Positions 29,806-63,698 of a stretch of 64,000 bases of DNA are shown here, one piece after another; the first letter of the stretch is position 1, and every line of letters begins with the position of its first letter. The position numbers and the translations under genes were made by a program. This DNA comes from a virus (lineage: Duplodnaviria > Caudoviricetes). Where the stretch lies: the IMG/VR virus record IMGVR_UViG_3300030376_005300, positions 36,987 to 100,986 of that record; one strand, given 5' to 3'. Under the pieces are notes generated by a model. It had not been told where the DNA came from. It did not search any database and was given only the letters and a program-made list of their open reading frames with translations.

Positions 29806-29994
29806 TCAAGCATTTCCGGCGGCTGATGGAAAACGACCGGAGGGTCTTAGTGGTTCTTGTGGTAAAGCACCGTGCCTACGCAGGGCATCCAACATTTGAC
29901 TAAGTTCGTACTGCCGCTTTTCCTCTTCTGTCATAAAGGACAAATCCTGCGTGCGACCTTTCAAAAAAATCCAAGACTCGCTGAATGCACTCAT
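29806..29994 (-). CDS. Small protein with SWIFLK leader (MSAFSESWIFLKGRTQ...), 62 aa
   Basis: ATG at 29994 preceded by SD AGGAGTGAAGGA inside the 67-bp repeat. Confidence 0.6.
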   Translation of the reverse strand: MSAFSESWIFLKGRTQDLSFMTEEEKRQYELSQMLDALRRHGALPQEPLRPSGRFPSAAGNA

Positions 29995-30024
29995 TGTTCC
30001 TTCACTCCTAAATTGAAATCCATT
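29958..30024. repeat. 67-bp direct repeat, copy 1 (RBS plus leader-coding module)
   Basis: 63/67 identical to 30271-30337. Confidence 0.9.
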
Positions 30025-30025
30025 C

Positions 30026-30307
30026 TTAATCTTCAAGAGGCCTACCCGTCTGCTGTTGATATTGAGTGGCGAACTCTTCCGCTTGTCGGTCCATTTCGGC
30101 CATTCCTTGCCTTCTCTTTTCCTCTCGGAGTTGGATGGTGCGGGGGTCATTTTCATACGCTTCTTCTTGGAGTTGCCTTATGGCCATCTCCTTCCTTTCC
30201 TTTTCACCGGGACTGTCGTAATGACCTGCCCGAAGTTCATCGGGAATAGCCGCACGAGTTGCGGTCATTTCTTTCAAAAAAATCCAAGACTCATTAAACG
30301 CACTCAT
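30026..30307 (-). CDS. Small protein with SWIFLK leader (MSAFNESWIFLKEMTA...), 93 aa
   Basis: ATG overlaps the stop of the upstream gene (ATGA 30304-30307); same leader as the next gene. Confidence 0.65.
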   Translation of the reverse strand: MSAFNESWIFLKEMTATRAAIPDELRAGHYDSPGEKERKEMAIRQLQEEAYENDPRTIQLREEKRRQGMAEMDRQAEEFATQYQQQTGRPLED

Positions 30308-30337
30308 TGTTCCTTCACTCCTAAATTGAAATCCATT
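30271..30337. repeat. 67-bp direct repeat, copy 2
   Basis: 63/67 identical to 29958-30024. Confidence 0.9.
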
Positions 30338-30591
30338 TGTTTGCCGCATGTCCTGCACTTGTCAACCCAGCAGAAGTACAACATTCCACAATGCTTGCAC
30401 CTCGTACCGGAGCCGATGTTGAGAACATCACCTGCATTCTTATTACGGTTGCGCTGTTTGAGCGTCAAGCCACCGAGTGGATTGTCGTCGTCCGTCCTCA
30501 CCGAAGCCCCGTAGGACTCGTTAAGGCGGATGCCACGCTTCTGTAGACGAGCGATGTCATCAAGACCAAGGCTACCATACTCCTTCACCAT
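30304..30591 (-). CDS. Zinc-ribbon protein, ~95 aa
   Basis: CKHC...CRTC; SD GAGGTGG upstream. Confidence 0.65.
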   Translation of the reverse strand: MVKEYGSLGLDDIARLQKRGIRLNESYGASVRTDDDNPLGGLTLKQRNRNKNAGDVLNIGSGTRCKHCGMLYFCWVDKCRTCGKQMDFNLGVKEQ

Positions 30592-30598
30592 AACCACC

Positions 30599-30772
30599 TC
30601 AACTGGTAGTCACGATAATGAAGATGTTCCCAAGGACGATATGAGGGTCAGCCGTAGTACAGGTGTTGGAACCTATAGCCGTGCTGATAGCCGTTGCTAT
30701 CGCCGTACGAGCAGTGGAGTCTTGGAAATCCTTTGGAGGATATGGACCAAGAATGGTGACGCTCTTTGCCAT
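30599..30772 (-). CDS. Small virion-associated hypothetical protein, 57 aa (below the ORF-track cutoff)
   Basis: Manual translation MAKSVTILGPYPPKDFQDSTARTAIATAISTAIGSNTCTTADPHIVLGNIFIIVTTS; SD GAGGTGG; fills an operon gap exactly. Confidence 0.65.
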   Translation of the reverse strand: MAKSVTILGPYPPKDFQDSTARTAIATAISTAIGSNTCTTADPHIVLGNIFIIVTTS

Positions 30773-30782
30773 TTAAGCCACC

Positions 30783-31510: not shown

Positions 31511-31521
31511 GCCTACTCACC

Positions 31522-32010: not shown

Positions 32011-32046
32011 AATTCATCATCTCCTGTATTTTTTCTCCATGAAACC

Positions 32047-33174
32047 TCATTGAAGGTCGCGGATTGAACCTTGACCCCCGAAGAAAGTAGTCCACACCTC
32101 ACCCATGGTTCGGTAAAGACCTTCTTGACCGAGGCGGTTGATGGCGAATGGGTCGCCAGTTTCAATTCCGCTCTCAAAGTACTGCGTAGGCTTTGCGGTG
32201 GAGAAGTACACATAGTCCGTGTCCAACATGTAGATACGGCTGATACCGTCGCCAGCCATCTCCTTGGTAGGGATGATTGGAACACCGTTGTAGGTAGCCA
32301 CGATGAATCCGGCTTCAACACCGGGAACACCCTTGACACCGTTGAAGGTGGGGACGACTCGCTTCTCTTCCATAAATCGCTGTTGTGCTTGGAGGAGTTG
32401 CTGGATTCGCATCAAAGTGTCGTATCCAGTGAGCATAACCTTGGGGTTGCCTCCTCTCTGCCAAATGAGGCGGAAGATTTCATCCAAGTGGTCAAGCGAA
32501 AGAGTACGGTTGGCAGATGAACTGTCAGCCGAATCCTCAGCAAACGACCAAGTGTTGGCACTGCGGTCAATGCTGTACATGTCTTCGTCGTTGGTGTCGT
32601 AGTGCGTACCGGAAGTCATGCTGTTGTTTCCAGTGGTGATTCGGTCAAGCGACTCAATGTCGTTTCCTGCAACCGTGGTGACATCCGTGGTCAACATGTC
32701 ATTGATGTGCTCTGCGTGGTGCTTACCCATCTCTTCCTTGAGGACAGAGCGGATGTCGCCAAGTCCATCGTCCTTGTCGTTAAGGAAGATGGCCGTTTCG
32801 CTCATGTCAAAAGAGTGAGCAACGGTCTTTGGCTTTGCGGCCACATTTTGGAATGTTGGCTTGGTGGTGTCAGGTAGAGTACCGTTTTCTGCGATACCGC
32901 CGCCGACCGTCTTGGAAGGCTTAGCGGTGACGACACGCCATCCACTTCGGTCCCAAGGCTTCTTGGGGAGGATGGAGAAAGCGTTGAACTCTTGGTTCAA
33001 TTGCGACCAAACTTTGCGTCCGTAGATGGCTTGGTAGGTACCAGCCGTTGTAGACAACAAAGGTGCGTCTGCTTTCAAAAGTTCACTACCACTGTAGGAG
33101 TAGCCCATGCTTGAGCCTGCACCATAGTAGTATCGTTCCATGTCGTTGATTGTTCTCATGTAATTTCTTGCCAT
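32047..33174 (-). CDS. Major capsid protein (HK97 fold), 375 aa
   Basis: Follows the protease; HK97-type pattern (GGGIAENGTLP, KPKTVAHSFDMSE, YNGVPIIP, IYMLDT, GLYRTMGE..QGSIRDL); resembles magrovirus/halovirus MCPs from memory. Confidence 0.9.
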   Translation of the reverse strand: MARNYMRTINDMERYYYGAGSSMGYSYSGSELLKADAPLLSTTAGTYQAIYGRKVWSQLNQEFNAFSILPKKPWDRSGWRVVTAKPSKTVGGGIAENGTLPDTTKPTFQNVAAKPKTVAHSFDMSETAIFLNDKDDGLGDIRSVLKEEMGKHHAEHINDMLTTDVTTVAGNDIESLDRITTGNNSMTSGTHYDTNDEDMYSIDRSANTWSFAEDSADSSSANRTLSLDHLDEIFRLIWQRGGNPKVMLTGYDTLMRIQQLLQAQQRFMEEKRVVPTFNGVKGVPGVEAGFIVATYNGVPIIPTKEMAGDGISRIYMLDTDYVYFSTAKPTQYFESGIETGDPFAINRLGQEGLYRTMGEVWTTFFGGQGSIRDLQ

Positions 33175-33189
33175 TCTTCATCACTCCTT

Positions 33190-34593
33190 TCATTGTTGGT
33201 GGAAAACACTGCCAGCAAGTCTGTGGACATCTGACCAATCCATGTTTCCAAGTTCTGCCGTTGATGGGATTTCAACGGTGGAGGTTGATTTGCGAAGTTC
33301 CGTGCCGGTGGAGGACGAACCAATGTTGTCAATTCGTGTGCTCAGGTCGGACAGAGCCTTCTCAATGTTTGCGAGAGGGGTGCGTGCATCAAAGGAATGT
33401 GCGGCTCGTGCGTCAGCATCGGCTCGCATTTCCTTGGCGAGTCTGTCAGCGAAGACAGAGCCAAGGTTGCCCTTGAATTGCTCCTCAAGTGAAGCGGCCT
33501 TGTAGACCTCGTAAGCGGCCTCAAGGTCAGCGGCACTCACATCAGATGGAGCGAGGTATCCCTTAGCGACTGCGCCGCTACCGCCGGAGTTGATTTTGCC
33601 GATTGCGTTGGTGGAAGGAGAGCCGCCCTCTTGGGCACGGCCCTTGACTTGACCAGCGAAGTAGTCAGCACCGTCTCCGATTTGCTCAGGAGTGGAGCCG
33701 AGGTTGGCTTTGGAAACGCTGTCAAAGTGGTTGCGAGCACCACTGATGTCAACGCCTTGAGATTTCAAGGTGTTTTCCATCCAGTTCAGGTAGTCAGTGG
33801 TGATAACATCGCTGTATTCACCTTTGGCCATGTCGCCACCGCCGTACATTCCTTCTTTCTTGTCTTCGTCAGCCATTTCTTTCGCCTCGTCTTTTTCTTC
33901 GTCTTTTGGCTTGTCGCCTTTTGGCTTGTCGCCTTTCTTGTCAGCCATGTGCTCTTTCAAGCCTTCGGGCATTTCACCCTTTTCCATAGCATCAAGTCGT
34001 CCGTTCAATCTGTCCAAAACACTGGACAAATCGCCCAATACATTTTCATCACTCATAGTTGTGTCCTCCTTCAATATACGGAATGTCGCCTCCGGGTTTA
34101 TACCTTTTTCACAAATGGTAACTTCGTGCAGTTCCAGTTTGGAGATTTCGGTGTAATCACCGTGTTGCTGGTCACTCTTACGCATGCGCTTGAATGCCTG
34201 CCCTCCAATACTGAACCCACGAAGAGCCCCTTTGCGAATTTCATTAGCCACTTCACGGGCCTTTTCAATGTCGTCTCTCAACTGAATAACGACAAACATA
34301 CCAGCGTCATCAACGCCGGATTTCCAAACACGACCGTCAGAATCAGTGTAGGCAGGTATAACTTCTCCAACTTGAATGTTAGAGTGTGCGAGTTGTACAT
34401 TTCGGTAGCCATCGGCTTTCATGAAACCGTTGAAAGCATTCTTGAGAGCCCCTCTCGTAATGAGGTCGCCCTGCTTGTCAACCATCTCTACCGAAGCATA
34501 TCCGGCAATAACGAGGTCATTGTCCGCCTTGACGATGCTAATGTTCCCACTGTGCTGGACAGGGGAAGTTCGCAGAGTCAGTGCAGAAGCCAT
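33190..34593 (-). CDS. Prohead (capsid maturation) protease fused to a scaffold-like region, 467 aa
   Basis: HK97-family protease motifs IAGYASVEMVDKQGD, LAHSN..VG, GFSIGG, LHEVTI..GINPEA; charged/coiled-coil C-terminal half; start reassigned to ATG 34593. Confidence 0.88.
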   Translation of the reverse strand: MASALTLRTSPVQHSGNISIVKADNDLVIAGYASVEMVDKQGDLITRGALKNAFNGFMKADGYRNVQLAHSNIQVGEVIPAYTDSDGRVWKSGVDDAGMFVVIQLRDDIEKAREVANEIRKGALRGFSIGGQAFKRMRKSDQQHGDYTEISKLELHEVTICEKGINPEATFRILKEDTTMSDENVLGDLSSVLDRLNGRLDAMEKGEMPEGLKEHMADKKGDKPKGDKPKDEEKDEAKEMADEDKKEGMYGGGDMAKGEYSDVITTDYLNWMENTLKSQGVDISGARNHFDSVSKANLGSTPEQIGDGADYFAGQVKGRAQEGGSPSTNAIGKINSGGSGAVAKGYLAPSDVSAADLEAAYEVYKAASLEEQFKGNLGSVFADRLAKEMRADADARAAHSFDARTPLANIEKALSDLSTRIDNIGSSSTGTELRKSTSTVEIPSTAELGNMDWSDVHRLAGSVFHQQ

Positions 34594-34617
34594 TGAACCA
34601 AGAGACAACGCTCTTTG

Positions 34618-34624
34618 TATATAA
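34618..34624 (-). promoter_or_regulatory. Archaeal TATA box for a leaderless protease-MCP transcript
   Basis: TTATATA 25 nt upstream of ATG 34593, with no SD before that ATG. Confidence 0.6.
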
Positions 34625-37600
34625 TTAAGTACGGAAGACAGCCTTGTCAGATGAGACCTCAAGAACACCCTCTTCCATAGGCACAGTCATGCGTTTTTCA
34701 GACTCTTCGTCGTCTTCTTTTGGCTCAATGGTGAAATCTTCTCCGGGCCGCTTGCGATTGTCGTAGTCAGGCATAGTTTTCTCATCGTTGAGATTGGTTG
34801 GACCCGATGGAGATTCAATCGGAGTAGCGTAATCTATCCCTAAGCCCATTGTACCAGTGCTTGATTGGCCAACGGCTCCTGCTCCACTCTTCAAAAATTT
34901 GTCAATGAGCATCAAGCCTTTGACCAAGACCTTCTTTTTCTGTTTCTCTTCCCACCAGTTCGTATCTTCTTCCTTGTGAGGTTCAATGAGCGGTTCGGCC
35001 TCACCTTCGGATTCGTGAATCTCTTCTTTCTCTGCTATCTCAAGTCCAGCCTTCAACAGCGCACCTGCTACTGGACTCCAATACGGTCGCTGACTTTCAG
35101 CAAGACGAATCAGATAGTCGTTATTGGCCAGTGGGGAATGCACCGTCCACATATTACCTCGCTGTGTACACTTGTAGAGAACATCGCCTTGAGGCATGGT
35201 AATACGAACACCCGACTTGGCTCTGCTGATTTCGCACAACCACTGGTCGCTTTCGGACTTAGCCAGCATACCAAGTGTTTCCCTACTAACCAACCCCTCG
35301 CCTTCGGCTTCTCCGATGATTTTGGAACCTGTTAGCGTGTACACATCATCACCACCGGTCGTTTCCACCTTGCCGACATTGGCAACATTAACTCTAACAT
35401 GGTCACCTTCGTTGAATTTCTCAGGACTGTTGAACGCCACACCGACATCCATGTACATCTCACCTTCGGATTCTACAGCCCTGTCACCAATCTCTTCGTC
35501 TTTTGTAATCGGTCCAGTGCCAAGTCGGTAGGTGTAGGGGTCAGAACCTCGGCGCTCCAACACTCGCAAGACAACATCGCTACCGGGTTTGAGCATGACC
35601 CACTTCGGATGGCGCAATTCGCCAACCATGTAAACTGATTTGGCATCCCTGAGCAAAAGCGACTCGTGTGTCTCCATCAAACTCTTTACCGTGACTTTGA
35701 GTCCTTCATCATCGGTTAGTCTTGTATCGCTGGCACTGGGAACATGAATGTTCTCAACACCCTCCAACCCACCTCGTACAATCTTGATACGGTCGTTGAG
35801 CGGTACATCGTGAACTGCTTTCTCAGCAAACTCAATCACATCAAAGATGTAGTAGCCTTCTTCGGTCTTGATGACATCGGCATGGAAGTCCTCGTCTGTG
35901 ACTTTCTTGAAGTTCTCTTTGTCTTCATCGCTGAGACTGAACGACTTGGACGACACTTCGTCATCCTCTTTCTTGACAAAGCCTCGCTCACCTTCGGGCA
36001 TGTGAGAAACAATCCAGTCGCCTGTGAATCCTCGCAGGTCTTCAAGGTCGTCCAGTTCAAAAATACGGTGCATGGGTTGGAGTATAGGTACTTTCTTGCC
36101 CAAGTCTTTGCGGATGATGTCAGGGTTGGTCAAGTCGGCCAATCCAATTTCAGCCTTGGTAGTGGAATGCTTGTCACCGTGACGAGTGAGGCCTCGTTCG
36201 TCCGGCTTGAACTGCGCGCCCATACGGTCCAGTCTGTTGAGCCCGTCACGATGAACTTGGTGGTCAGGGTGTCTCAGCATCTCCATCCATTCGGAAGGTG
36301 CAACTCTGTCCCAAAACTTACCGAGCGGTTGAATCAAACGCTGTGCGTGCCCTTCGGGTACAGGCGTGATACTGACATTCCCGTTTCTTGAGATGCGGTA
36401 CTTGAAGTTGGGGCGAAACTCATCGCCGAACTCGTGACGCAGACCTGTGGAATTGTACACGCTGTGAACAGAGTGAGCGTTGGGTCCGAACTGGTCAACG
36501 GGTACATCGGTCATTTCGTCAGAAGTCTCGGTGACGCTTTCAGGCATAGGTACACTGGGGTCGTTGGTCAGAATGCTGTCCAACTTCTGCATGACATTCC
36601 AATAGTCGTTTTGGTACCTCAATGTCTTCTTTCCGCCGAACTTCACATTTTTCGGAGTAGAGGGTTTGGTCTCGTGAACAATTTCACCCTGCTTACTTTC
36701 CTTGCGCTGACGACGAGGGTCACTGTTGAACGCCAAGTGGTGATGAAGGCCAAGTTGTGAGTTGCGTTCTTCGGCTCTGTGGCCGACGGTGTTGTAAATT
36801 CCGTTGACCAATCTCAAGAAGTCCATATTTCTACTTCTTGGGTCTTTCTTCAACGATTCATGCTCTTTCTCAATATCAAGGTCGGGGTGTAATTGTTGAA
36901 GGAACTGGCGCATGGTCATGATAGGCGCTGAATACGAGGGGTCTTGCTGATAATTTGGAAGGAAGGTGTTTTGGATGTAATCAAGGAAGGTGGCGTTGTG
37001 GTATTCGTTGTTGGGGTCAAGTCCCAACTGTTGCATCAGTGCCTCGTTGTCGCCCAAGGTCTCGGCACTCATCATCGTCTCGTGACCTTGAAACGCCTGC
37101 TTGACCTGCGAGCCAATGTCAAGTTGCCCACTCAATCCCTCTTTGGTGACTCGGTTATGACCTCGTGTGCGAATACCGTGCTGGTCGTGCGGTACAGTGT
37201 TGAGATAGTCGTTGGCCATCATGGCGAACATTCGCATGTTCGCTTCCACTGTTTCGTGGTCCAAGTTGGGATTGAAAATGTGGTTGAAGAGTTCAGGGTC
37301 GGACTGGAGTAGATTTTTGAGATGCACTCCTGCACTGGTCATGGCGTTGGTATCGGCCACCAACTTGTCTTGCAGAATGCCGTCGTGACCATCAACAGAA
37401 AACCTTTGACCGCGCTTTTCACTCGCCGCTTCCAACCGAGCCTCCAAGTCGTCCAATCGTTGGTTGTTTTCAACCATGCGTCTACGGATGTCTTCCATTC
37501 CGGCTTCGTCTTTGATTTCCCGATGAACCTCCATTGATTCTTGTAAAAGTGACATCTCTGCAATCGCGTTTTCATACTCTTCCGTCGCAGGTGACGGTGG

Positions 37601-40328: not shown

Positions 40329-40730
40329 TCAAAGAATACGGCTGGAGATTCGGTCAACGGACTTCTTTAAATCACTCATTTTTGGCCCGTCGCCGCCTGT
40401 GAAGTTTTCAAGAGCGCCTGTCGTACTGAAAGCCGTCGGGTAGTAAGGGGAGGTCCGCGTCAATACATCGCTGTTTTCGGAAATGGCACCTTTGTTAGCG
40501 ACATCCTCAACCTTAGGGACGGTGTTGTTGGTGTTGTAGAAAGCATTGGGAATACCAGCAGGTTGAATTTCAAAGCGAGCATGGCCCACATCAGAGCCTT
40601 CTTCTTGACCGGAGTAGTCAGGCATGCTACCTTCTTTCTTAGCAATGCGGGCTTCAAGAGCCTTGGCGGCTTTGAGAAGTTCGTATGCTTTGTCGTTCGC
40701 TTGTACAAATCTCGGTTTCATCGTATTCAC
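40329..40730 (-). CDS. Hypothetical head-module protein, 133 aa (AYELLKA motif)
   Basis: GTGA-coupled to the upstream gene; variant of the AWxLLK leader near the N-terminus. Confidence 0.65.
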   Translation of the reverse strand: MNTMKPRFVQANDKAYELLKAAKALEARIAKKEGSMPDYSGQEEGSDVGHARFEIQPAGIPNAFYNTNNTVPKVEDVANKGAISENSDVLTRTSPYYPTAFSTTGALENFTGGDGPKMSDLKKSVDRISSRIL

Positions 40731-41101
40731 TCCATACCCATTTGGTTGCCTAAAGAACCTGCATCCTTGGATTGTTCAGCCAAGGCGTGAATCTCTGACC
40801 ACTCCATGTTGTGGAAGTCAGCGTTGGTCTGTGGCATATTCAAATCACTACCGTCCTGTGCTTTGAGAACCATAGCGTCAGAAATTTCACCTCTAAAGCC
40901 ATCAACAAGAACATCTTCCGGTCGCTGAGTACGGGCCTGCACAAAACCTGCTTTCCTCAACATCAACGAAGGGTCACTCATTATTTTTTTGAGTTGGCGA
41001 TTTTCGGCTTTCAAATCACGAAGGCCTGCATCCATAGATTCCATTTTTGTAATCAACGCACTCATCAGGCGCTCTGCAACATTTTCTCTCTCTTCTGCCA
41101 C
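40727..41101 (-). CDS. Coiled-coil scaffold-like protein, 124 aa
   Basis: N-terminal coiled coil; C-terminal NMEWSEIHALA matches the protease C-terminus NMDWSDVHRLA; SD GAGGTGA. Confidence 0.65.
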   Translation of the reverse strand: MAEERENVAERLMSALITKMESMDAGLRDLKAENRQLKKIMSDPSLMLRKAGFVQARTQRPEDVLVDGFRGEISDAMVLKAQDGSDLNMPQTNADFHNMEWSEIHALAEQSKDAGSLGNQMGME

Positions 41102-51727: not shown

Positions 51728-52366
51728 TCACCGTGTCCCCATCATTCTGCCCATAAAACTACCAGCGGCAGAGCCCGCTTTGTCCATGAATCCGTCATTT
51801 GCCAAAGCCGCGTTCAAAGCCCCTCCCATCATGGACTGCTGTGCAAATGCCGCAATCTGCTGTTGTTGCATTTCTGCCTGTTGAATACTTTGTTGACTGG
51901 CCATTTGCAGTGAACTAAATTGATTTTTGACATTCTCGGCACTCATGGTTTGAAGATTGTCAGGAAGTGAAGTGACATCCATTTTCATTTTACCTTCCTT
52001 TTCGTCAATGATGAACTCAGCGTTTTTGAGAACTTCCAACACTGAAAAACTCACGAGGTCGTTGAACATCTGCAAGAAAGTTGCCATCTGTGCTCCAACG
52101 ACAAAACGGTCAATGGGTGCAAGTGTACGCATCATGGCCAGTTGAATCTCCATTTCGCTGGGAGGTGCCATTGGTTGTTGCATCATACCTTGTTGCATAC
52201 CTGCTCCTCCCATCATGCCGCCCATAAACGCGTTGTTTTGGGCTTGTTGCATCATGCCATTTTGCTGTGCAAATGGGTTCATTTGAGAGTTCATAGGAGG
52301 AGCGTTAGATTGCGCTCCAAGGTTAAGTGCACCGTTTTGTTGTTGTCCATTGTTGCCAAATAACAT
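51728..52366 (-). CDS. Q/M/G-rich protein, 212 aa
   Basis: SD GAGGTGA; low-complexity N-terminus, helical core. Confidence 0.7.
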   Translation of the reverse strand: MLFGNNGQQQNGALNLGAQSNAPPMNSQMNPFAQQNGMMQQAQNNAFMGGMMGGAGMQQGMMQQPMAPPSEMEIQLAMMRTLAPIDRFVVGAQMATFLQMFNDLVSFSVLEVLKNAEFIIDEKEGKMKMDVTSLPDNLQTMSAENVKNQFSSLQMASQQSIQQAEMQQQQIAAFAQQSMMGGALNAALANDGFMDKAGSAAGSFMGRMMGTR

Positions 52367-54361: not shown

Positions 54362-54367
54362 GTGGCA

Positions 54368-55036: not shown

Positions 55037-56236
55037 TCACTCTTCTTTCTTTTCAGAGTCAAGTTTTTCCCGCTTGCCGTCCTTTGAGGGACCGGGGCCT
55101 GCTTTAGAGCCGATAACAATGACCATACCGTGGGCTGGTTTCTTGCTTTTTTTGTCATCTGCCTTTTTCTTGTCATCGCACTTACAGTTTTTACCACATT
55201 TAGGGCACTCTGCTTTATTCATACTACAGTGCATTTTACCGATGCAGTCTTCTTTATCGCACTCGGAGCACTTTGCTTTGTACATCATTTCTTCTACTTG
55301 CTTTCTGATTTCTTCACCTGTGTTATTCACAAACATATTCTCACCTTTCGTTGTTCCAAATCCACCGAACTCTTGCTGTGCTTCAAAGCCAGTGGCCCTT
55401 GGGTCGCTACGATAAGCGTCCGGGTTCCATATCTGACGGTCAGCAACAGTGTTGCCCTGTACATTGGAAATATCATTGATGCCGAGTCCTCCTGACCCGA
55501 ATCCTTGGGTTTGGCCTTGCATACCAAAGCCGCTATCTTGGTCGTTGTCTTGTCCAAGTAGTGATTGTGCGCCGTAAGCACCCATGAGCGTAGCGGCAAC
55601 GGGGCCTAACTGCTCTTCTGCTTGTCCGAGTGCTTGGAAACCACGACCAAGTGTACGGTTGAATCTGCTGTCGCCAACTCTCCGTAGACCTGTGGCACCT
55701 GCATCAAAGCCTCGCCCCGCTGATTGTCGCGCCGCACCAAAAGGCGTCATGGTGGAATCAATGTAGCCTTCGGGCGTCACCTTACTACGCAAACCGGGGT
55801 ACAGCATGTCCTGCTGACGAGCAACGGCCTCTGCGGTATCGCTACCAACTCGGCTGGCCGCTCTCGCTCTGTTCGCTTGCCGACCTGCTCTGACTGCCTG
55901 TGCTCCTCTCCCTGCCCCACTGACATAAGCCAAAGGATTCAAACCCTGTAATGCACCAGTAGCGAATCCAAGTGCCCGTTGACCGCCTGTAGCATCTTCA
56001 ATTTCTTTTTCTGCAAGTAGACCACCTGTAAAAGGGTCTTGGAAAGTAGCACCGCCATGAAAGCCGGGGTCAAGTTTTCCTGTCTCGGGATTGAAAACCC
56101 TACCCCCTGCGCCTGTGAATCCACCCAATAAACCGAAAGCGGCGGGAACGGCCAAAGGTAAAATCTTCTCAACCTTGTCAGGGTCACCTTTCACGACCGA
56201 CCAAGCGTGGTCAATCGGTAAAGAAGACTCCGACAT
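55037..56236 (-). CDS. Leader-bearing (PIDHAWSVVK) glycine-rich protein with a Cys/Lys-rich C-terminus, 399 aa
   Basis: Start reassigned to ATG 56236; glycine-zipper hydrophobic segments; CSEC..C..C..CPKC..CKC tail. Confidence 0.7.
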   Translation of the reverse strand: MSESSLPIDHAWSVVKGDPDKVEKILPLAVPAAFGLLGGFTGAGGRVFNPETGKLDPGFHGGATFQDPFTGGLLAEKEIEDATGGQRALGFATGALQGLNPLAYVSGAGRGAQAVRAGRQANRARAASRVGSDTAEAVARQQDMLYPGLRSKVTPEGYIDSTMTPFGAARQSAGRGFDAGATGLRRVGDSRFNRTLGRGFQALGQAEEQLGPVAATLMGAYGAQSLLGQDNDQDSGFGMQGQTQGFGSGGLGINDISNVQGNTVADRQIWNPDAYRSDPRATGFEAQQEFGGFGTTKGENMFVNNTGEEIRKQVEEMMYKAKCSECDKEDCIGKMHCSMNKAECPKCGKNCKCDDKKKADDKKSKKPAHGMVIVIGSKAGPGPSKDGKREKLDSEKKEE

Positions 56237-56414
56237 GTATGCTGGCAGGCCTTTTATCGTGATAAGCCTGTTGGAGATACGAATAATGCTCAGAAGCCTC
56301 AATCAGCAGACACAGAGCCTCGTCGCTACCGTCCTGCAACTCTTGGATTTTCTGCAAATTCCACTTGCTGACCTTTAGAATCTCAACAAACAGGTCGTCC
56401 CAAATGCGTTGCAA
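56211..56414 (-). CDS. Small hypothetical protein, 67 aa
   Basis: TTG start with SD GAGGAG; fills the gap between two genes. Confidence 0.45.
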   Translation of the reverse strand: MQRIWDDLFVEILKVSKWNLQKIQELQDGSDEALCLLIEASEHYSYLQQAYHDKRPASIHVGVFFTD

Positions 56415-56425
56415 GTCGTTCTCCT

Positions 56426-56986
56426 CTATCTGACCAGCACGACATCCGACTTAAGTGTGCCTCGCTCTTTAAAGTGGCGGGCTCTATTGGCGTGAGGGTC
56501 TTCGGCTACCAGCGTGTGGTCCTTCGTGTGGCTCATGTCAGGTCCACCCTTGCCGTCAATGCCACGGTGTCGGCGCTCTCGTCGGAGTTCACTGCGATAC
56601 TTGACACGCTCCGGTGTAGACTCGTACTTCTTGTCGTACTCCAACTTGTGCCGCTTGGCTTCGGGGCTGATAGGGTTCTTGAGGACAAGAACCGATTTGA
56701 CAATTGTCGGCTTCCCACCAACACCCTGCTTCTTGCTACGCTTACGCTTAGTCGCCGCACGCTTCTGCCCTTCGCTCATGGAGCCACTGGTCTTAGGAGT
56801 CTTGCTGGACACCTTAACTGATGGGCGACACTTGGGGTAGCCTTTGCTACCTTTCTTGGCCTTGCTCCTTCCGCACGGCGGGTGCTTACCGTCCTTGTCC
56901 TTGCGTGATACATCCACCCACTTCTCCTTGAACCAACGATTCAAGTCCTTAACGACGAGTGTATCGTGGCAAGTACAAGTGGACAT
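56426..56986 (-). CDS. Basic two-domain protein: RWFKEKWVD/YPKCRP domain plus an HNH-like domain, 186 aa
   Basis: First domain resembles a widespread small basic phage family; second has D-M-S-H...N-R-A-R (HNH-like); domains bounded by LVVK, IVK, LVLK. Confidence 0.65.
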   Translation of the reverse strand: MSTCTCHDTLVVKDLNRWFKEKWVDVSRKDKDGKHPPCGRSKAKKGSKGYPKCRPSVKVSSKTPKTSGSMSEGQKRAATKRKRSKKQGVGGKPTIVKSVLVLKNPISPEAKRHKLEYDKKYESTPERVKYRSELRRERRHRGIDGKGGPDMSHTKDHTLVAEDPHANRARHFKERGTLKSDVVLVR

Positions 56987-56990
56987 CTAT

Positions 56991-57398
56991 TCAGCCTCTT
57001 TTCTCTTGATTCTGCTGAGATGTTTTGTCATCATCTATAGGACCGCCTGCGGCCCAAGTGTAGCATGTTCTGTCCTTGTGACACTTGAAATCATGCATCC
57101 AACAATAACCTAAGTCACCTTCTAACGGCATACATTCTTTCATACGAGGACTAATGTCAAAAGCAATACAGTTACTACAATTTGACTCTTTGGCCACTTC
57201 GGGTGTAGTGTTCCAATGCTTTGCCGCATCAACCCAGTAACCTTCATCTGTTAAGTTCAAAGGTCCGTACTTTATATGCTCGGACTTAATAGCAGTGTTT
57301 CTATTCTTCGTATTCAACTTCAAGTCTCTTGTAGCCATAGGGCAAGTTGACCTCTGCTTGATAATGGCCCAAGCCTGTTCCATTAGTAGCATATTCAT
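56991..57398 (-). CDS. Leader-bearing (MEQAWAIIK) Cys-rich protein, ~133 aa
   Basis: CPMAT...YGPLN...CSNC...GYC...FKC...RTC..W metal-binding pattern. Confidence 0.7.
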   Translation of the reverse strand: MNMLLMEQAWAIIKQRSTCPMATRDLKLNTKNRNTAIKSEHIKYGPLNLTDEGYWVDAAKHWNTTPEVAKESNCSNCIAFDISPRMKECMPLEGDLGYCWMHDFKCHKDRTCYTWAAGGPIDDDKTSQQNQEKRG

Positions 57399-57820
57399 TT
57401 CTTCTTCCCCTTTTTGCCTTTGAACTTACCTTTGCAGTATTGCACGGCCCATCCATTGGCGTAGGCTGAGGGATACACCTTGAACTTACGCTTCGCCGCC
57501 GCTTTACCAGCGGGGCACAGTTTCTTTTCTAAGAAGTCAAACGCACTGCCTATGCCGACGCAATGTCCGCACTCGCAACCTTTAGCCACATCTCTTTCCG
57601 GCTCGTGTGTGTAAATGTCTCCGTCTTCATGAATGAATACTTTACCACTTCGCACCATACTGTCAAGAGTTGATTTCAAATCCTGCTCATCTGATATAAC
57701 CTTTCTAAGGTTCTTCATACCAAGAGCACCGCCTTCTTTCTCAATCTCACGCAAAATAATCTGCTCTGTGCTGTCTGCTGACTTCTTCAACAAAGTCCAT
57801 GCAGTTTCAAGCGAAGTCAT
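57395..57820 (-). CDS. Leader-bearing (LETAWTLLK) modular protein: winged-helix-like, CxCxxC and basic KFKVYPSAYAN segments, 141 aa
   Basis: ATGA coupling; wHTH-like EQIILREI...LDSMVRSGKVFIH. Confidence 0.7.
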   Translation of the reverse strand: MTSLETAWTLLKKSADSTEQIILREIEKEGGALGMKNLRKVISDEQDLKSTLDSMVRSGKVFIHEDGDIYTHEPERDVAKGCECGHCVGIGSAFDFLEKKLCPAGKAAAKRKFKVYPSAYANGWAVQYCKGKFKGKKGKKK

Positions 57821-58266
57821 GCTCGCTCACTCCTTGCGTCTATCAAATCTTGAAGAGTAGGCCCTCTGTACGGGCGACCCATGGTGCTTTCGCCCGAATC
57901 GGGGTCACTGACATAAAAGGAAGAAGGCATTCCTATCCCTCGTTCCTTTTCTGTTTTATAAGGCAGGTATTGATGAGGTAACCTGTGTTCGGGAGCCATA
58001 TCCGATATAGAATGAGCACTTTGTCTAAACATACCCGGTGCGAAAGGAGCGTACTCGCCAGTCAACCCAGCAGGAACAACGCCCACCCGCTCCAAAGCCT
58101 CGTTGACATCTCTCAATTCTTCTTCTTCGTACACCGAAGAATAGCCGCCCTTGTCAAACCCTTCATCTGTTCTATGTTTCGGAACAGCAGGCAAGAACCC
58201 GTGCTTCTCTGCAAAAGCAAAGTTTTCCCGCTTTAAAAGAAGCCACGCTTGGTCCATTGGGTTCAA
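57817..58266 (-). CDS. Leader-bearing (PMDQAWLLLK) hypothetical protein, 149 aa
   Basis: TTG start overlapping the upstream stop (TTGA) with SD GAGGTGG. Confidence 0.65.
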   Translation of the reverse strand: MNPMDQAWLLLKRENFAFAEKHGFLPAVPKHRTDEGFDKGGYSSVYEEEELRDVNEALERVGVVPAGLTGEYAPFAPGMFRQSAHSISDMAPEHRLPHQYLPYKTEKERGIGMPSSFYVSDPDSGESTMGRPYRGPTLQDLIDARSERA

Positions 58267-58655
58267 CAGTTCCACCTCTTGAGTGATGCTCCCTTGGGGG
58301 TGAGTTTGCCTTTCTTGCTGGTCGGACCTTTGACACCCGACATGCGAGCGCAAAACGATTTACGACGCTTGGCAGATTTACTACCGGGTTTCAACTTACT
58401 TGGCTTTTTGGTGACGGGTGGCTTGAGGTTTGCACCCGTCTTACGCTTAGCGGCGGCACGACCTTTGGCGTTCAGCCCGCCTTTCTTGTTATGCTTGTTA
58501 GGGTTGTAGCCATGGAATGGCTTGGACTTTTTTTTGGCTTTGAGAACAGCAAGGCTGAGTTCCATCGGACTGCAACAATCACAGAACGAGACATCAGACC
58601 AATCAGTCTTACCGACGACATCCGCCTCGGTCAACCAGTCTATAGCGTCCGCCAT
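58263..58655 (-). CDS. Very basic small protein (GGLNAKGRA...RRKSFCARM...LKRWNC) behind an acidic leader ending PMELSLAVLK, 130 aa
   Basis: Resembles a widespread small basic phage family (DUF6321-like from memory). Confidence 0.7.
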   Translation of the reverse strand: MADAIDWLTEADVVGKTDWSDVSFCDCCSPMELSLAVLKAKKKSKPFHGYNPNKHNKKGGLNAKGRAAAKRKTGANLKPPVTKKPSKLKPGSKSAKRRKSFCARMSGVKGPTSKKGKLTPKGASLKRWNC

Positions 58656-58681
58656 GTGGTTTGTGACAGCAATTCTCTACA

Positions 58682-60022
58682 TCAAGGTTTCTTCAACAGT
58701 CGCCAAGCCATGTTCATCGGCTCACCGGTTATGATGCGGTCGTCTGTAATGTCGTACTGATAGTCGGGGCTATTTTCAGGTAGAACGAAATCGTTCGTAC
58801 CTTGGTCATAAAAGCGGTCCCGAGCAAGTTGATGCGCCTTTGGCAAAATTGGTTGAGGAGAGTAGCCTTGCCTCCCGTGCATGGCTTCTCTCGTTGCCTG
58901 CTCAAGAACATGGGCTGGCATCTCGGTTTGAAACTCTGAGCCGCGTCCCTGCTGTGCATCAAGTGCGTGACCAACTTCATGCGCCATGACGGGAGCGAGA
59001 CGATTCGTAAAGCGACCGACCGTTTTTTCTCCGAAGTCTTGGTCTGCTGGGGCCAACATACCTTGGTCGTCAGTACGAAACATGGCCGAATCGCCGTGAA
59101 ACTTGAGGCCGTAAGGTGTCAAAGCCACCATTTGATTCGTGTCTCCTTGTTCATCAGGAGCCGTATAGCCTTGCCACGCAGGGGTCAGCGAAGGCCCAGT
59201 AGGTAAATCACGAATGTCGTACATGAGTTTGCGGTCGGCTTTGAGCATTTTGTTCGCTTCATCTCGTGACCTTGCCATTTCTCTCCACGCTTCGGGAAGG
59301 TTGGAGTAGTCTTTCTCTTGAGGTATGAGTGACTGCGGCACGGTCTGTTCAGGCTCTTCGGGTTCCTGTTGCATCTCGGCAGGTACTTGGCGCTCCAAGA
59401 AATCAAACCGCTCCGGTAAGTCTTCATGAATATCCGTATTATCGTATGCACTTTCCAAACTCGTGGTAGGCGTGACCTTGATGGTCTGCCGTCTGCGGTC
59501 ACTTAACGGGCGATGTCCGACTGTCGCCAAGACCAGTTTACCGGTTTTCTTGTCCAGCACAAAGTGCGGCGTCATGACCGTACCAAGTCCCATCTGCTTT
59601 TCACTTGAATCAACTTTCGGCATGTCGGTTGTGAATGCGTTAAACGCTACACTGGGTTGGTTGTGAGGCAAATCTGAATTTTGGTCACCGGGTGGCAACT
59701 TTTGGCCCATTACCTCTTTCAATTCAGGGTGATTCTCAATCAGGTCGTTCGCCATCATCGCCATGATGGCTTCAATGGTAAAGCCATACTGACCCAACCC
59801 TCTCCGTTGAAACTGATGAGGAAGGTCTTGGTCGGGGTGATACCGGTCCCGTTTGCGGTCAAGGTAGTGTTGAGTGGGTCGCACACTCACATGCTCCATA
59901 CCGCCTTCTTCTATAGCGCGAATCATGCGGTCAGGGAGTGTCTTGTAGTAATCAGGAGTGAGGTCGCCGTAGAAATCAAAATCTTTGAGCAGAATCCAAG
60001 CCTGCTCAAACGGTGCGACCAT
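58682..60022 (-). CDS. Leader-bearing (PFEQAWILLK) protein with an HExxH metallopeptidase-like motif and a C-terminal second leader copy, 446 aa
   Basis: AHEVGH...E; ends TGEPMNMAWRLLKKP. Confidence 0.7.
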   Translation of the reverse strand: MVAPFEQAWILLKDFDFYGDLTPDYYKTLPDRMIRAIEEGGMEHVSVRPTQHYLDRKRDRYHPDQDLPHQFQRRGLGQYGFTIEAIMAMMANDLIENHPELKEVMGQKLPPGDQNSDLPHNQPSVAFNAFTTDMPKVDSSEKQMGLGTVMTPHFVLDKKTGKLVLATVGHRPLSDRRRQTIKVTPTTSLESAYDNTDIHEDLPERFDFLERQVPAEMQQEPEEPEQTVPQSLIPQEKDYSNLPEAWREMARSRDEANKMLKADRKLMYDIRDLPTGPSLTPAWQGYTAPDEQGDTNQMVALTPYGLKFHGDSAMFRTDDQGMLAPADQDFGEKTVGRFTNRLAPVMAHEVGHALDAQQGRGSEFQTEMPAHVLEQATREAMHGRQGYSPQPILPKAHQLARDRFYDQGTNDFVLPENSPDYQYDITDDRIITGEPMNMAWRLLKKP

Positions 60023-60079
60023 AGTTGACCCATGCTACGCTACATGAAAAGCGTTGAGGTGGCTGGCAAATACCGTGAA

Positions 60080-60220
60080 TTACTCGTCCATGGTAAATGA
60101 TTTACACATCTCGCAATACCAAGCGATGCCGCGAAATACTCCTTGCAATTTCAAATACACCCGCCTTGTCGGATGGTGATGGCAATGTTCGCAACGCTTA
60201 CTCTTCTTCTTTCCAGCCAA
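60080..60220 (-). CDS. Zinc-finger microprotein, 46 aa (below the ORF-track cutoff)
   Basis: Manual translation MAGKKKSKRCEHCHHHPTRRVYLKLQGVFRGIAWYCEMCKSFTMDE; TTG start after SD AGGTG. Confidence 0.55.
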   Translation of the reverse strand: MAGKKKSKRCEHCHHHPTRRVYLKLQGVFRGIAWYCEMCKSFTMDE

Positions 60221-60386
60221 AGTAAACACCTTGCTCCATTCCTCTTAGCGCACGGAAGCGCATGGTATGGTTGAACGACTTGAGTGCTCTAACATCGTGT
60301 TCCAAGTCGCGTAAGCGTTCCCTTACCATCTTAGCGTAGACGGTTAAGACGAACAAAGCGCCGATAAACACGATGTCCCATACCAT
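60198..60386 (-). CDS. Small single-TM protein, 62 aa
   Basis: N-terminal hydrophobic helix followed by a short coiled coil. Confidence 0.55.
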   Translation of the reverse strand: MVWDIVFIGALFVLTVYAKMVRERLRDLEHDVRALKSFNHTMRFRALRGMEQGVYFGWKEEE

Positions 60387-60430
60387 GAATCCCCGATTGG
60401 GGCTCAATACTTGAAGTTTGGTGTACCAAA

Positions 60431-61489
60431 TCAAGCGGCTCGGTCAATTTGGTTCTGCTGAGTAGAGCCGTCTGAACGACCTCGCTGACCCGCAAATTGC
60501 ATCAGACGCTGACGAATGGCTTGAGATTCATCTTCGCCGGGGTCTTGGAACATAGCCATGGTCTCTTCGTCCATAGGTACATTGAGGTCAGGCTTCTCGC
60601 CTTGTCGCACACGCTCAAGGTTTTCTCGGTAGCGGTTGCTCATTTGTCGCATCGGACGCTCTTTGCTCTCTTTGGGTTCGGTTGGCTCCCTTACGGTTTG
60701 GTCTTCAAAGGTACCGCCAGCGGCTGTAGCCATACCGGAGAGAATGTCAGCGATTTTTTCTTGCTGAGTTGGCCTGCGTTGCTCTTGAGGGTCGTCTACA
60801 AACTCACGGCTTGCACCACCGAGGCGTGCACCTGCACCCACACCTTCAACATTTTGAAGCGTGGTGGCTCGTCGTCGGCGACCACCTTGCCTCAATCGCT
60901 TTCCTTCGTCGTCCACGCCACGCAATGGTAAGTTCATACCTGCACCGGAACCGCCACGGATGTTGGTTCGTCCGCCACGCTGTCCACCGGTCAATTGACG
61001 ACCAGCCGTTTGCTCCATACCTTCACGAGCCAGTCGTTGTTCCCTTGGAGAAAAGAATGATTCTTCGGGCATAAGTTCGTACCCCGGAACACGAGCCATA
61101 CTGGTACCGCCACTGCCAGCCATTTCACCTACAGTGCCTCTTGGAGTGTGAGCAATCATCGTCTCAGTCATTTCTTGCAGAGGCGACAAGTCTCGCTGAA
61201 CTCGGCGGTCGGTAGCAGGAAGTGCTTCGGGCGCAAATTCTTCGCCGGGGCGCATGTCGCCAGCCTCAGAAGGCATGTCCACCTTCCGAGAAGGTGTTAC
61301 CATTTGGTCTCCTTCATACTCAGCGGGCATGGTTCGTCGCATGTGCATAACATCACCAAGGCCTTCTTCCCCGGCTTCGGCTCTGCGCCGTGCAAGCATC
61401 TGCAAAACAGCAGGAGGAAGCGTTCCCGTGTAGCCCTGTTGACCGGGGATGGCTTTCAGTAAATTCCAAGCGTGCATAAATGCGCTCAT
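60431..61489 (-). CDS. Leader-bearing (AFMHAWNLLK) low-complexity protein, 352 aa
   Basis: ATGA-coupled to the HMG-CoA lyase stop; charged, probably disordered. Confidence 0.7.
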   Translation of the reverse strand: MSAFMHAWNLLKAIPGQQGYTGTLPPAVLQMLARRRAEAGEEGLGDVMHMRRTMPAEYEGDQMVTPSRKVDMPSEAGDMRPGEEFAPEALPATDRRVQRDLSPLQEMTETMIAHTPRGTVGEMAGSGGTSMARVPGYELMPEESFFSPREQRLAREGMEQTAGRQLTGGQRGGRTNIRGGSGAGMNLPLRGVDDEGKRLRQGGRRRRATTLQNVEGVGAGARLGGASREFVDDPQEQRRPTQQEKIADILSGMATAAGGTFEDQTVREPTEPKESKERPMRQMSNRYRENLERVRQGEKPDLNVPMDEETMAMFQDPGEDESQAIRQRLMQFAGQRGRSDGSTQQNQIDRAA

Positions 61490-62328
61490 GCACTGGGGAT
61501 AGCGTCATTGGTTAAAGACATACTGATGCGCTCGGCCAGTCGTTCGGCCAACCCAAGTCGCTTTTCGTCAACACCAGTGTGAAAGCCCCATGCGTGCAGG
61601 TGCCTGACGAGCGTGGTGGTGTTGATGTTGGCTCCACTGCCCTCGGCAAAAGGACAACCGCCGAGCCCACCGATGCTGGAATCAAACTGGCGTATGCCAT
61701 TAAGTAAGCCACTTCTTACTAAGGCCACTGCTCGGCCTTCGTCGTCTTTATGGTGCAAGTGAAGCGCCGCTTTGATGCCCTCGTTCTTCGCCAGTTCGGC
61801 CAGTTCAGCGACTTCTTTCGCCGTCCCGACGCCCACGGTATCGGAAAACACAACAGTGTGGCCGAACATCTTGGCATCTCGGATGCACGAAATAAGTGTG
61901 GAAATTGAAGGCATTCCGCTGTAAGGCGAACCGAAAGCCATGCTGATGTAGACTCGGACATTTTTCTTGGGCACCTTGTCCATGAAGGTCTTGTACATCA
62001 GCACAATCTCACTGCGGGTCTTGCCCATGTTCTTCATGTTGAAAGTCTCGCAGGGTGAAAATACAATGTTGAACTTTTCTACACCAGCGGCTACGCCCCT
62101 GTCGTAGCCACGCTTGTTCATCACCAATGCACTGCCACGGTCAAACACCTGCTCAGCGTCTGCCATTTGCGGCACAAGGCGAGGGTGAGCAAAACTCACT
62201 TCCTCAATGTCAGCAAGCCCGCTGTCGTACAGAAGGCTGATGAGTTCCCGTTTTGTCTCGGTAGGTACGAAGGGCTTGATGTACTGGAGTCCATCACGAG
62301 GGCCAACCTCGTAGATGGAGATGTTCAC
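61486..62328 (-). CDS. hmgL: Hydroxymethylglutaryl-CoA lyase (DRE-TIM family), 280 aa
   Basis: IYEVGPRDGLQ, SFAHPRLVPQMAD, DTVG, HLHH, FDSSIGGLGGCPFA motifs. Confidence 0.9.
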   Translation of the reverse strand: MNISIYEVGPRDGLQYIKPFVPTETKRELISLLYDSGLADIEEVSFAHPRLVPQMADAEQVFDRGSALVMNKRGYDRGVAAGVEKFNIVFSPCETFNMKNMGKTRSEIVLMYKTFMDKVPKKNVRVYISMAFGSPYSGMPSISTLISCIRDAKMFGHTVVFSDTVGVGTAKEVAELAELAKNEGIKAALHLHHKDDEGRAVALVRSGLLNGIRQFDSSIGGLGGCPFAEGSGANINTTTLVRHLHAWGFHTGVDEKRLGLAERLAERISMSLTNDAIPSA

Positions 62329-62531
62329 TGGATTCCTCTCCGCATGCCGTTGAAGCAGGCTTGGTGAAAAGCCTCCTCGTCTTCAATGTAAATCACGGTG
62401 TCCATGGGGTCGGGCGTTGCCAGCCAAATGGTCACAAACCCTGCGATAAATGAGAGGATGAAGAGTGTCGGCAACAGCATGTGCAGACCGAGCGCGGTGT
62501 AGAAATTAAACTTGTCGGCCAACGCCTTCAT
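62325..62531 (-). CDS. Small single-TM membrane protein, 68 aa
   Basis: Long hydrophobic stretch; coupled at both ends (ATGA/GTGA). Confidence 0.6.
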   Translation of the reverse strand: MKALADKFNFYTALGLHMLLPTLFILSFIAGFVTIWLATPDPMDTVIYIEDEEAFHQACFNGMRRGIQ

Positions 62532-63154
62532 GGCAAGTAGCCCAAGTCACTAAAAGGCGACGGGGGATAAAGTCGCCTTAACTCTTCATCAGTCGGGTCG
62601 CGACCTTCGTCCCGAGTAAACTGGTTAATTCTACCTTGAGGTGTGTTTCGTCCTGCTGACACGCGGATGGGGTAAGACGGCCTTGGTTGTCTTGAAATGC
62701 CCATGGGTTGGGACAATTCATCCTTATCTTGGTGGGGGTTTACAAAGCCACCTTCCAAATAGGTTGGCGCTTCTTGAATGCGGTCTTCTGCATTGTATTC
62801 GGGCATAGACACAGGTCGGCCTCGGTATGGCAACGAGCGGAGATTAACTGGCCCGCCCATAAAACTACGCTCACGGCCTGAGTTTTCCGAAGGGTCCATG
62901 AGTCTCTGCATTGTTCTCATACGCTCTCGTGAGTCTTGTGTTGGGAACGGGCTTACTCCGGCGATATTCTGCGGCTTTCGTAGAGCCATTGAGTAGGCAT
63001 TGGGGTCAATGGTTCCGAGATTAGACACTGGTCGTTGGAGTCCATGGGCTTCGGCAAGGTCAGGGTGAGTGTCATAGTCACGGTATTGACTGTACGCCTG
63101 CATGCGGGGGTCTGATTTGAGAAGCGACCAAGCCTGTTCCAGTGGCGTCATCAT
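62528..63154 (-). CDS. Leader-bearing (PLEQAWSLLK) protein, 208 aa; paralog of 63177-63698
   Basis: Shared KSDPRMQA, HPDLAE, NLGT.DPNAYSMAL, LMDP, PTDEEL. Confidence 0.75.
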   Translation of the reverse strand: MMTPLEQAWSLLKSDPRMQAYSQYRDYDTHPDLAEAHGLQRPVSNLGTIDPNAYSMALRKPQNIAGVSPFPTQDSRERMRTMQRLMDPSENSGRERSFMGGPVNLRSLPYRGRPVSMPEYNAEDRIQEAPTYLEGGFVNPHQDKDELSQPMGISRQPRPSYPIRVSAGRNTPQGRINQFTRDEGRDPTDEELRRLYPPSPFSDLGYLP

Positions 63155-63176
63155 GGTATCATCTCGTGGTGTAGAC

Positions 63177-63698
63177 TCAGCCGAGTAGTGCCATCAACTC
63201 TTCATCGGTTGGCTGTCTTGCATTATCATAGTAGAAGCGGTCAATACTTGCTTGAGGTGAACTTGATGGTGGTTGGCTGAGCGCAAACCCACGCTCTTCC
63301 GGCCTACTCATTCTACTTATCTTCGGCCCTTCAAAACCCCCTACCAAATCAGTGCGTGGGATGGATGGGTCCTCAGCATAAGCGGTGCTTCGGTAATTGG
63401 GCTTTCCTGTTAAATTGATTGGCGAAAGGCTATCAAATTTGCTCTCATAACCTAAATTCTTTGTCGGGTCCATGAGACTTTGCATTACCGCATGGCGTTG
63501 AGCAGGGGTAAGGTACTGCGATAGTGCCATTGAGTAGGCATTGGGGTCAACGGTCCCGAGGTTTCCGACTCTACCTTCCAAATCATGGTGCTCTGCAAGG
63601 TCGGGATGCCTTCTTCCAAACCTCGTCCTCGCCGTGTGCGCTTGCATGCGAGGGTCAGACTTGAGCACGCTCCAAGCGATGTCAATAGGCCGACCCAT
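63177..63698 (-). CDS. Leader-bearing (PIDIAWSVLK) protein, 173 aa; paralog of 62528-63154
   Basis: Start reassigned to ATG 63698; T-rich TATA-like CTTTTTTA ~25 nt upstream. Confidence 0.75.
   Translation of the reverse strand: MGRPIDIAWSVLKSDPRMQAHTARTRFGRRHPDLAEHHDLEGRVGNLGTVDPNAYSMALSQYLTPAQRHAVMQSLMDPTKNLGYESKFDSLSPINLTGKPNYRSTAYAEDPSIPRTDLVGGFEGPKISRMSRPEERGFALSQPPSSSPQASIDRFYYDNARQPTDEELMALLG

Follow-up and report, generated by a model that had tools for sequence, protein, structure and literature searches.

A short tag shared by unrelated proteins of a magrovirus-type archaeal virus: a candidate capsid-targeting helix and cleavage site

In bacteriophage T4, an N-terminal capsid-targeting sequence (CTS) of 10-19 residues joins targeting and processing residues, and the Alt protein is trimmed at both of its ends (PMC9026906). 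The peptide is found on the internal proteins IPI-III and on Alt and is removed by the gp21 protease. Here we describe a ten-residue tag, P-h-[DE]-x-A-W-x-h-L-K (h, hydrophobic), that recurs on otherwise unrelated proteins encoded in a stretch of 64,000 nucleotides (the window), which comprises bases 36,987-100,986 of the 100,986-bp IMG/VR virus record IMGVR_UViG_3300030376_005300 (98% complete). The source is an archaeal tailed virus of the magrovirus type, which agrees with the archaeal virus proposed in a preliminary description of the window. Magroviruses (Magrovirales, viruses of Poseidoniales) have linear genomes of about 100 kb, encode a capsid protein about 33% identical to those of haloviruses and are associated with Poseidoniales (PMC5434244). 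The assignment is made because the record of about 100 kb, the identity of its capsid protein to those of haloviruses and a Poseidoniales label match this description: the major capsid protein shares 32% identity with its counterparts in the haloarchaeal siphoviruses HVTV-1 and HCTV-1, and a 90%-identical member of its cluster carries the label Candidatus Poseidoniales archaeon.

We put the probability at about one half that the tag is a capsid-targeting helix that doubles as a cleavage site, docking to the procapsid and being cut after its terminal Lys. Such a tag would function like the T4 CTS. Both are short peptides on unrelated, fast-evolving proteins, the T4 order of targeting residues first and protease site last is predicted for the magrovirus tag as well, and in both systems the cargo genes vary between relatives; the processing of Alt at both termini has a parallel in the doubly tagged gene D. 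The differences are also clear. The tag has no sequence similarity to MKTYQEFIAE, it ends in Lys whereas the T4 site is L/I-x-E, it occurs 12-14 times per genome compared to about four times in T4, it is also found between domains and at C-termini, and the host is an archaeon. Moreover, the protease here is of the HK97 type (S78) and that of T4 is of the gp21 type (S77), so the T4 likeness drawn in the preliminary description stands as analogy and fails as homology; the tag would act like a CTS without belonging to that family.

Three other described systems share features with the tag. The loading peptides of encapsulins and microcompartments are short peptides on unrelated cargo that dock to the inner face of the shell, as we infer for the tag, and the encapsulin shell has the HK97 fold. 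Loading peptides of this kind may be placed at either terminus of the cargo. However, DNA, a portal and a maturation protease are all lacking in these shells, whose peptides are uncleaved and follow another consensus, whereas the virus described here has genes for terminase, portal, protease and tail. The C-terminal capsid-binding helices of scaffolds and of the HK97 protease (P22, 80alpha, HK97) resemble a terminal Trp helix on two proteins of this virus, the protease-scaffold and the product of 40727-41101; that helix differs from the tag by an invariant His. The role of the HK97 protease tail was reportedly treated by Duda et al. in 2013. In the polyproteins of eukaryotic viruses a short conserved motif likewise recurs between the modules of one open reading frame (ORF), while the magrovirus tag is mostly N-terminal on single-domain proteins and has seven conserved residues upstream of the putative cut.

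Motif, enrichment and position of the tag

The pattern [AS]-W-x(1-2)-h-h-K has 13 in-frame copies in the window and one further copy elsewhere in the genome. All 13 had been placed correctly in the preliminary description: ten are N-terminal and begin 2-6 residues past the start codon, two are internal in gene K and one is C-terminal in gene D (Table 1). Each strict match is in the frame of a minus-strand gene, and the sole plus-strand match is interrupted by stops. The motif is enriched over shuffled controls, a comparison called for earlier: the 13 copies in called genes compare with a mean of 0.42 and a maximum of 5 in 2000 within-protein shuffles, none of which reached 13. An unbiased search of the proteome for gapped 4-mers returned D.AW...K and AW..LK as its top-ranked patterns. 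With a position matrix trained on 253 distinct tags, the true single-spacing tags of this proteome reach 20-34 bits, whereas no other site exceeds 11 bits. Among all sequences fetched, an ATG stands 2-3 codons ahead of the Pro in 202 of 214 N-terminal tag contexts. Neither matrix nor pattern found a tag on the terminase, portal, capsid, tail, GTPase, lyase or replication proteins, which extends to portal, capsid and replication genes an absence first noted for the tail, terminase, GTPase and lyase gene starts.

At the Pro, Ala, Leu and Lys of the tag all synonymous codons are in use, and codon choice is free at every conserved position. Selection therefore acts on the tag as a peptide, as judged from the sequences compared. 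The free codon use, together with the internal and C-terminal copies, rules out a nucleotide element or translation signal; an ordinary Shine-Dalgarno sequence lies upstream of the tags. A twin-arginine translocation (Tat) or other secretion signal is likewise rejected, given that there is no Arg-Arg, that the sequence after the Lys is hydrophilic and that a membrane-like segment is found in just 2 of the 56 tagged proteins identified in six genomes (see below). By its predicted character the tag is a portable amphipathic helix, and its hydrophobic face is spaced F/M...W..L. This spacing is that of known groove-binding helices.

Two variant tags had been proposed earlier, and they fared differently. 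PMELSLAVLK (58539-58568, in gene M) is a credible degenerate tag because its orthologues have a normal tag at that position and because changes of the Trp to Met, Phe or Leu are common in internal tags; in a relative, the same DUF6321 domain follows a normal N-terminal tag. AYELLK, in gene 40329-40730, was rejected, as it scores only 7.8 bits and is conserved solely in the closest relative.

Tagged proteins and their distribution

A terminase search of IMG/VR gave 285 relatives, and five full records (92-109 kb) were fetched, making six genomes together with this one. The five relatives carry 5-12 N-terminal tags each, in the form M-x-[PA]-F-[DE]-x-A-W-x-[LVI]-L-K. When compared downstream of the Lys, the 56 tagged proteins of the six genomes fall into about 44 BLAST clusters, and domains that are tagged in one genome are tagless or fused to another domain in the next. 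Thus, the tag is modular and sits on interchangeable, unrelated proteins, as the preliminary description had it. Its statement that the sequences after the Lys are unrelated except in one paralogous pair also holds; the pair is genes A and B, which are 40% identical downstream of the tag.

Tagged genes lie almost only on the late strand, that of the terminase (55 of 56, compared to about half of all genes), and this includes a kinase-like tagged gene that is antisense within the plus-strand early region. Their products are more hydrophilic than other proteins, with a median grand average of hydropathy (GRAVY) of -0.82 versus -0.44 (p = 5e-17). The only Pfam matches among the 56 are DUF6321, DUF5872 and a DnaJ-type zinc finger, and all PHROG matches are to function-unassigned families. 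The preliminary description had held out an equal frequency of the tag on replication and metabolic proteins as counter-evidence; the Pfam search of the tagged proteins returned no replication or metabolic domain.

The tag is restricted to this virus group. Its exact back-translated pattern matches 65 viral-contig stretches, most of which bear further tags and 63 of which have homologues in the six genomes, while the prokaryote genomes searched (596 Gb) contain no match. On that ground, the tag is not regarded as mimicking a host N-terminal signal. An unbiased search of 91 of the 102 kb of halovirus HVTV-1 revealed no comparable shared motif, so the virion data for that virus are not transferable. 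In the more distant relative L180 (50% capsid identity), no tag occurs in the 21 kb read, in which a K↓S-D site (↓, predicted cut) and the scaffold-type helix described below are present. In the literature we found no magrovirus paper that mentions the motif and none that combines "capsid targeting" with "archaeal virus", and the tag system seems to be unpublished.

The tag also occurs more than once in a protein. Two or three tags, placed between domains, are present in 37 of the 342 distinct tagged ORFs in the full set of sequences fetched, and the internal tags have a dialect of their own, G-E-P-M-[DN]-[IL]-A-[WMF]-[RQ]-L-L-K. Gene D encodes an HEVGH zincin-like motif at about residue 348. 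Its product has nine homologues among 5.8 billion proteins, too few to derive a fold, and no relative in the PDB. All nine are domain mosaics, in which an N-terminal tag and further tags alternate with an HExxH module and with zinc-ribbon or DUF5872 modules, and the HExxH module is always directly followed by ...GEPMxxAWRLLK. Recurrence between domains would be superfluous in a label that served only for docking, but not in one that doubles as a cut site.

Gene K is a conserved gene; in about 80 relatives it precedes the large terminase by three genes. Its tags, PMxDAWSSL[LM]K, are one residue longer than usual; its relatives have 1-3 copies of this longer form (PMxDAWSSLMK), the last always about 235 residues from the end. 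An AlphaFold2 model calculated with 31 homologues has a mean predicted local distance difference test (pLDDT) score of 52.5 and is largely disordered, which leaves no fold to search; short helices are predicted at both tags and a long C-terminal helix at residues 387-433. The K protein also has in common with a 133-residue head-module protein (40329-40730) the short motif F-E-I-Q-P-x-G, retained in relatives as F-x-h-x-P/x-G-G.

Genes I and J are located in the head-tail region and share a direct repeat of 67 nucleotides (29958-30024 and 30271-30337, 94% identical and 313 nucleotides apart). The repeat contains the end of the upstream gene, a Shine-Dalgarno sequence and the tag, and the Lys codon is exactly where it terminates. 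In appearance it is a cassette junction at which cargo could be swapped. The cargo part of I is 75% identical to the C-terminus of an untagged 856-residue protein of relative G003.

The remaining tagged genes of the window form the main array (55037-63698), which is tightly packed; the four-base overlaps continue through an operon of GTPase and membrane-protein genes, all untagged, and on through gene K into the packaging and head genes. The gene A product has no Pfam or PHROG match. Gene E starts with a TTG behind a GAGGTGG Shine-Dalgarno sequence and has a tagged orthologue in G003 (89% identical), while gene H has tagged orthologues in G001 and G004. In marine podophages, DUF6321, the domain of gene M, is a hypothetical protein for which no link to virion proteins was found. 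The Lys-rich C-terminus of the F protein resembles the first part of DUF5872; the second part is in the untagged gene 56426-56986, two genes downstream, and in relatives the two pieces occur fused with a tag in between.

Predicted cleavage site, proposed mechanism and alternatives

The end of the tag, h-L-K, resembles a conserved site predicted in the capsid family, h-x-K↓A-D. In an alignment of 120 diverse capsid representatives (30-57% identity) there is a sharp border between a gappy, unconserved upstream part, the putative propeptide, and the conserved core downstream. At this border 89 of the 120 sequences have a hydrophobic residue at the second position ahead of the predicted cut; immediately ahead of it stands Lys (88 sequences) or Arg (14), immediately behind it Ala, Ser or Thr (84), and one position further on Asp (95). 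The equivalent site of the HVTV-1 capsid protein reads GGMSK↓ADNLL. The HK97 capsid protein itself matures by a cut after a Lys. We modelled the last 100 residues of the scaffold and the capsid protein as one chain (TGA read as Gly) with 120 capsid homologues. The model has the HK97 fold, with encapsulin shells among its structural matches, and it places the predicted site in a linker with pLDDT below 50, just ahead of the well-ordered core. The protease-scaffold and capsid genes are in the same frame, and the 33175-33192 interval between them consists of three TGA codons and three sense codons; no natural reading frame places a tag beside the capsid protein.

After the Lys of the tag, Ala is enriched 3.6-fold and Ala-Asp 7-fold, and the protease domain ends in FRILK↓E, at the start of the scaffold half. 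A Lys-directed prohead protease fits the tag end, the predicted capsid site, the Ala and Ala-Asp enrichment, the FRILK↓E junction and the placement of tags between domains. A second, older helix, P-[ST]-T...N-M-[DS]-W-[SD]-[DE]-[VI]-H-x-L-A, occurs in exactly two proteins in each of the six genomes, and in L180 it is on a separate scaffold of 131 residues and on the post-portal protein. This helix is probably the capsid-binding end of the scaffold, and it is possible that tag and scaffold helix share a binding site.

In the mechanism that we propose, the tag would dock unrelated hydrophilic viral proteins to a common receptor within the assembling procapsid, for which the inner face of the capsid protein, the protease-scaffold and the disordered multi-tag protein K are candidates. 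After assembly, the HK97-type (S78) prohead protease would cut behind the Lys of the tag, which would free N-terminally tagged cargo and split the multi-domain, beads-on-a-string proteins. The cargo may then be expelled with the DNA at the next infection; this delivery step is conditional on docking and cleavage and takes T4 as its basis (PMC9026906). The tag is linked to the late module by genes I and J among the head-tail genes and by K near the terminase.

Several points weigh against this mechanism. The presence of tagged proteins in the virion and their cutting are predictions from sequence, and there are several candidate receptors. A cut at the C-terminal tag of gene D would remove only two residues, so cleavage cannot be the sole role of the tag. 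The residues after the tag Lys are variable, with E, M and Q also common. The scaffold helix is only loosely tag-like (W-S-x-h-x-K/R, of the K type), and the tag matrix does not recognise it. In relative G002, one tagged gene is on the opposite strand. Finally, the main array is at the far upstream end of a long minus-strand block, so the tagged genes could be expressed early and not late.

This position, close to the genome end and a frequent place of early ORFans, would also suit an unlikely but still substantial alternative, that the tag docks accessory proteins to a hub other than the capsid, such as a host protein, a viral chaperone or an assembly or replication compartment, and that these proteins are unpackaged host-takeover factors. 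Docking motifs, like the tag, occur N-terminally, internally and C-terminally, and the cargo is dark matter with enzyme-like members such as those with the HExxH motif. However, the N-terminal motif is in no host genome in the prokaryote search, and the strand bias of the tagged genes holds even for lone antisense genes in the early region. A non-capsid hub would, moreover, leave unexplained why the tag end matches the capsid site and why tags lie between domains.

A further alternative, which we consider improbable, is that the tag is a processing signal without any targeting function, recognised by the S78 protease or by a zincin like that of gene D. The tags between the domains of multi-domain proteins, the fixed order of HExxH module and tag, as in self-cleaving polyprotein proteases, and the match of the tag end to the conserved capsid site are all expected of such a signal. 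Yet just the last three residues resemble the capsid site, and seven more (including P, h, D/E, A and W) are equally conserved, which argues for a binding function. The prohead protease works inside the shell, and its substrates would still need to enter. Tagged HExxH proteins are absent from three of the six genomes, which also removes zincin D as a universal tag protease. Least probable of all is a self-associating or membrane-binding amphipathic helix with K as nucleator of a condensate or membrane site, perhaps tied to the neighbouring operon of GTPase and membrane-protein genes: it would suit an amphipathic helix with Trp and Lys, the disordered K with its 1-3 tags and the Gly/Met-rich low complexity of the portal tail and 47092-48987, but the conserved acidic residue, the Pro cap and a sequence kept within very narrow limits speak for a specific protein pocket and against lipid, and the genes of the membrane operon are untagged.

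Genomic setting and implications

All real genes in the window are on the minus strand. The tagged genes and the head and packaging genes discussed above are listed in Table 1. Pfam and PHROG searches further identified an HNH protein, a head-module protein of 1910 residues and a tail tube protein. About a quarter of the window is taken up by an ORF of 5489 residues in the tail region (3384-19853, minus strand). Low-complexity stretches rich in Gly, Met and Pro or in Gln and Met (e.g. GGM repeats) are found in the portal C-terminus (41488-43284) and in 47092-48987 and 51728-52366, two proteins without assigned function near the packaging genes. For 47092-48987 and for 46085-47092, which are neighbours of K, no match was found in Pfam, PHROGs, a PDB sequence search or the ESM Atlas.

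Table 1 Tagged genes, head and packaging genes and related elements. Positions are those of the window unless stated otherwise; aa, amino acids; ↓, predicted cut.
Feature	Position	Strand	Tag, site or description
Gene A, 173 aa	63177-63698	-	Tag 63660-63689, PIDIAWSVLK, 27.6 bits; paralogue of B
Gene B, 208 aa	62528-63154	-	Tag 63116-63145, PLEQAWSLLK, 29.8 bits
Gene C, 352 aa	60431-61489	-	Tag 61454-61483, AFMHAWNLLK, 24.7 bits; hydrophilic, low complexity
Gene D, 446 aa	58682-60022	-	N-terminal tag 59984-60013, PFEQAWILLK
Gene D, C-terminal tag	58691-58720	-	PMNMAWRLLK, two residues before the stop
Gene M, 130 aa	58263-58655	-	Cys-rich N-terminus, degenerate internal tag, then DUF6321 (1.1e-17)
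Gene E, 149 aa	57817-58266	-	Tag 58231-58260, PMDQAWLLLK, 32.9 bits
Gene F, 141 aa	57395-57820	-	Tag 57785-57814, SLETAWTLLK
Gene G, 135 aa	56991-57398	-	Tag 57357-57386, LMEQAWAIIK, 20.2 bits; Cys-rich
Gene H, 399 aa	55037-56236	-	Tag 56189-56218, PIDHAWSVVK; Gly-rich, Cys-rich, Lys-rich tail
Gene K, 486 aa	48984-50444	-	Internal tags 50022-50054 and 49692-49724; conserved core gene
Large terminase	44604-46088	-	Untagged; reference point for strand and module; Pfam and PHROGs
Portal protein	41488-43284	-	Untagged; Pfam and PHROGs
Coiled-coil protein, 124 aa	40727-41101	-	After the portal gene; also in distant relative L180
Scaffold-type helix, copy 2	40775-40810	-	NMEWSEIHALAE; near the C-terminus of 40727-41101
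Prohead serine protease fused to scaffold-like C-terminal half	33190-34668	-	Peptidase_S78, 1.3e-10
Scaffold-type helix, copy 1	about 33211-33246	-	NMDWSDVHRLAG; C-terminus of protease-scaffold
HK97-fold major capsid protein	32047-33174	-	Predicted site SELLK↓ADAP after residue 34; Lys codon 33073-33075
Gene I, 93 aa	30026-30307	-	Tag 30272-30301, AFNESWIFLK; head-tail region
Gene J, 62 aa	29806-29994	-	Tag 29959-29988, AFSESWIFLK; head-tail region
Further tagged gene	genome 13602-14426	-	Outside the window; pattern match at genome 14405

Taken as a whole, the observation made in the preliminary description is confirmed and its interpretation is partly supported. In the surface ocean, magroviruses rank among the most abundant viruses; viruses and hosts are uncultivated, and most of the genes are without known function. 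It is possible, at somewhat less than even odds, that about a tenth of magrovirus gene products are loaded into the head via a combined address label and cut separator, as a fast-changing arsenal for delivery into Marine Group II archaea. This putative arsenal would include kinase-like, zincin-like and zinc-finger proteins, the multi-domain ones being cut inside the head. If this is true, the virus would have a protein-delivery system far larger than that of T4, one that arose separately in an archaeal virus whose protease is of the HK97 type. Should the S78 protease cut the tag, the T4 strategy would have originated twice, independently. The beads-on-a-string proteins would then be a polyprotein-like arrangement that is unusual in a tailed virus. 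Through the shared tag, roughly 10% of the proteome becomes accessible to functional study in one step. The tag predicts which of the dark-matter proteins are carried in the virion and are the first to act in a new host cell, and it may represent a simple, testable code for loading cargo into an HK97-fold capsid.

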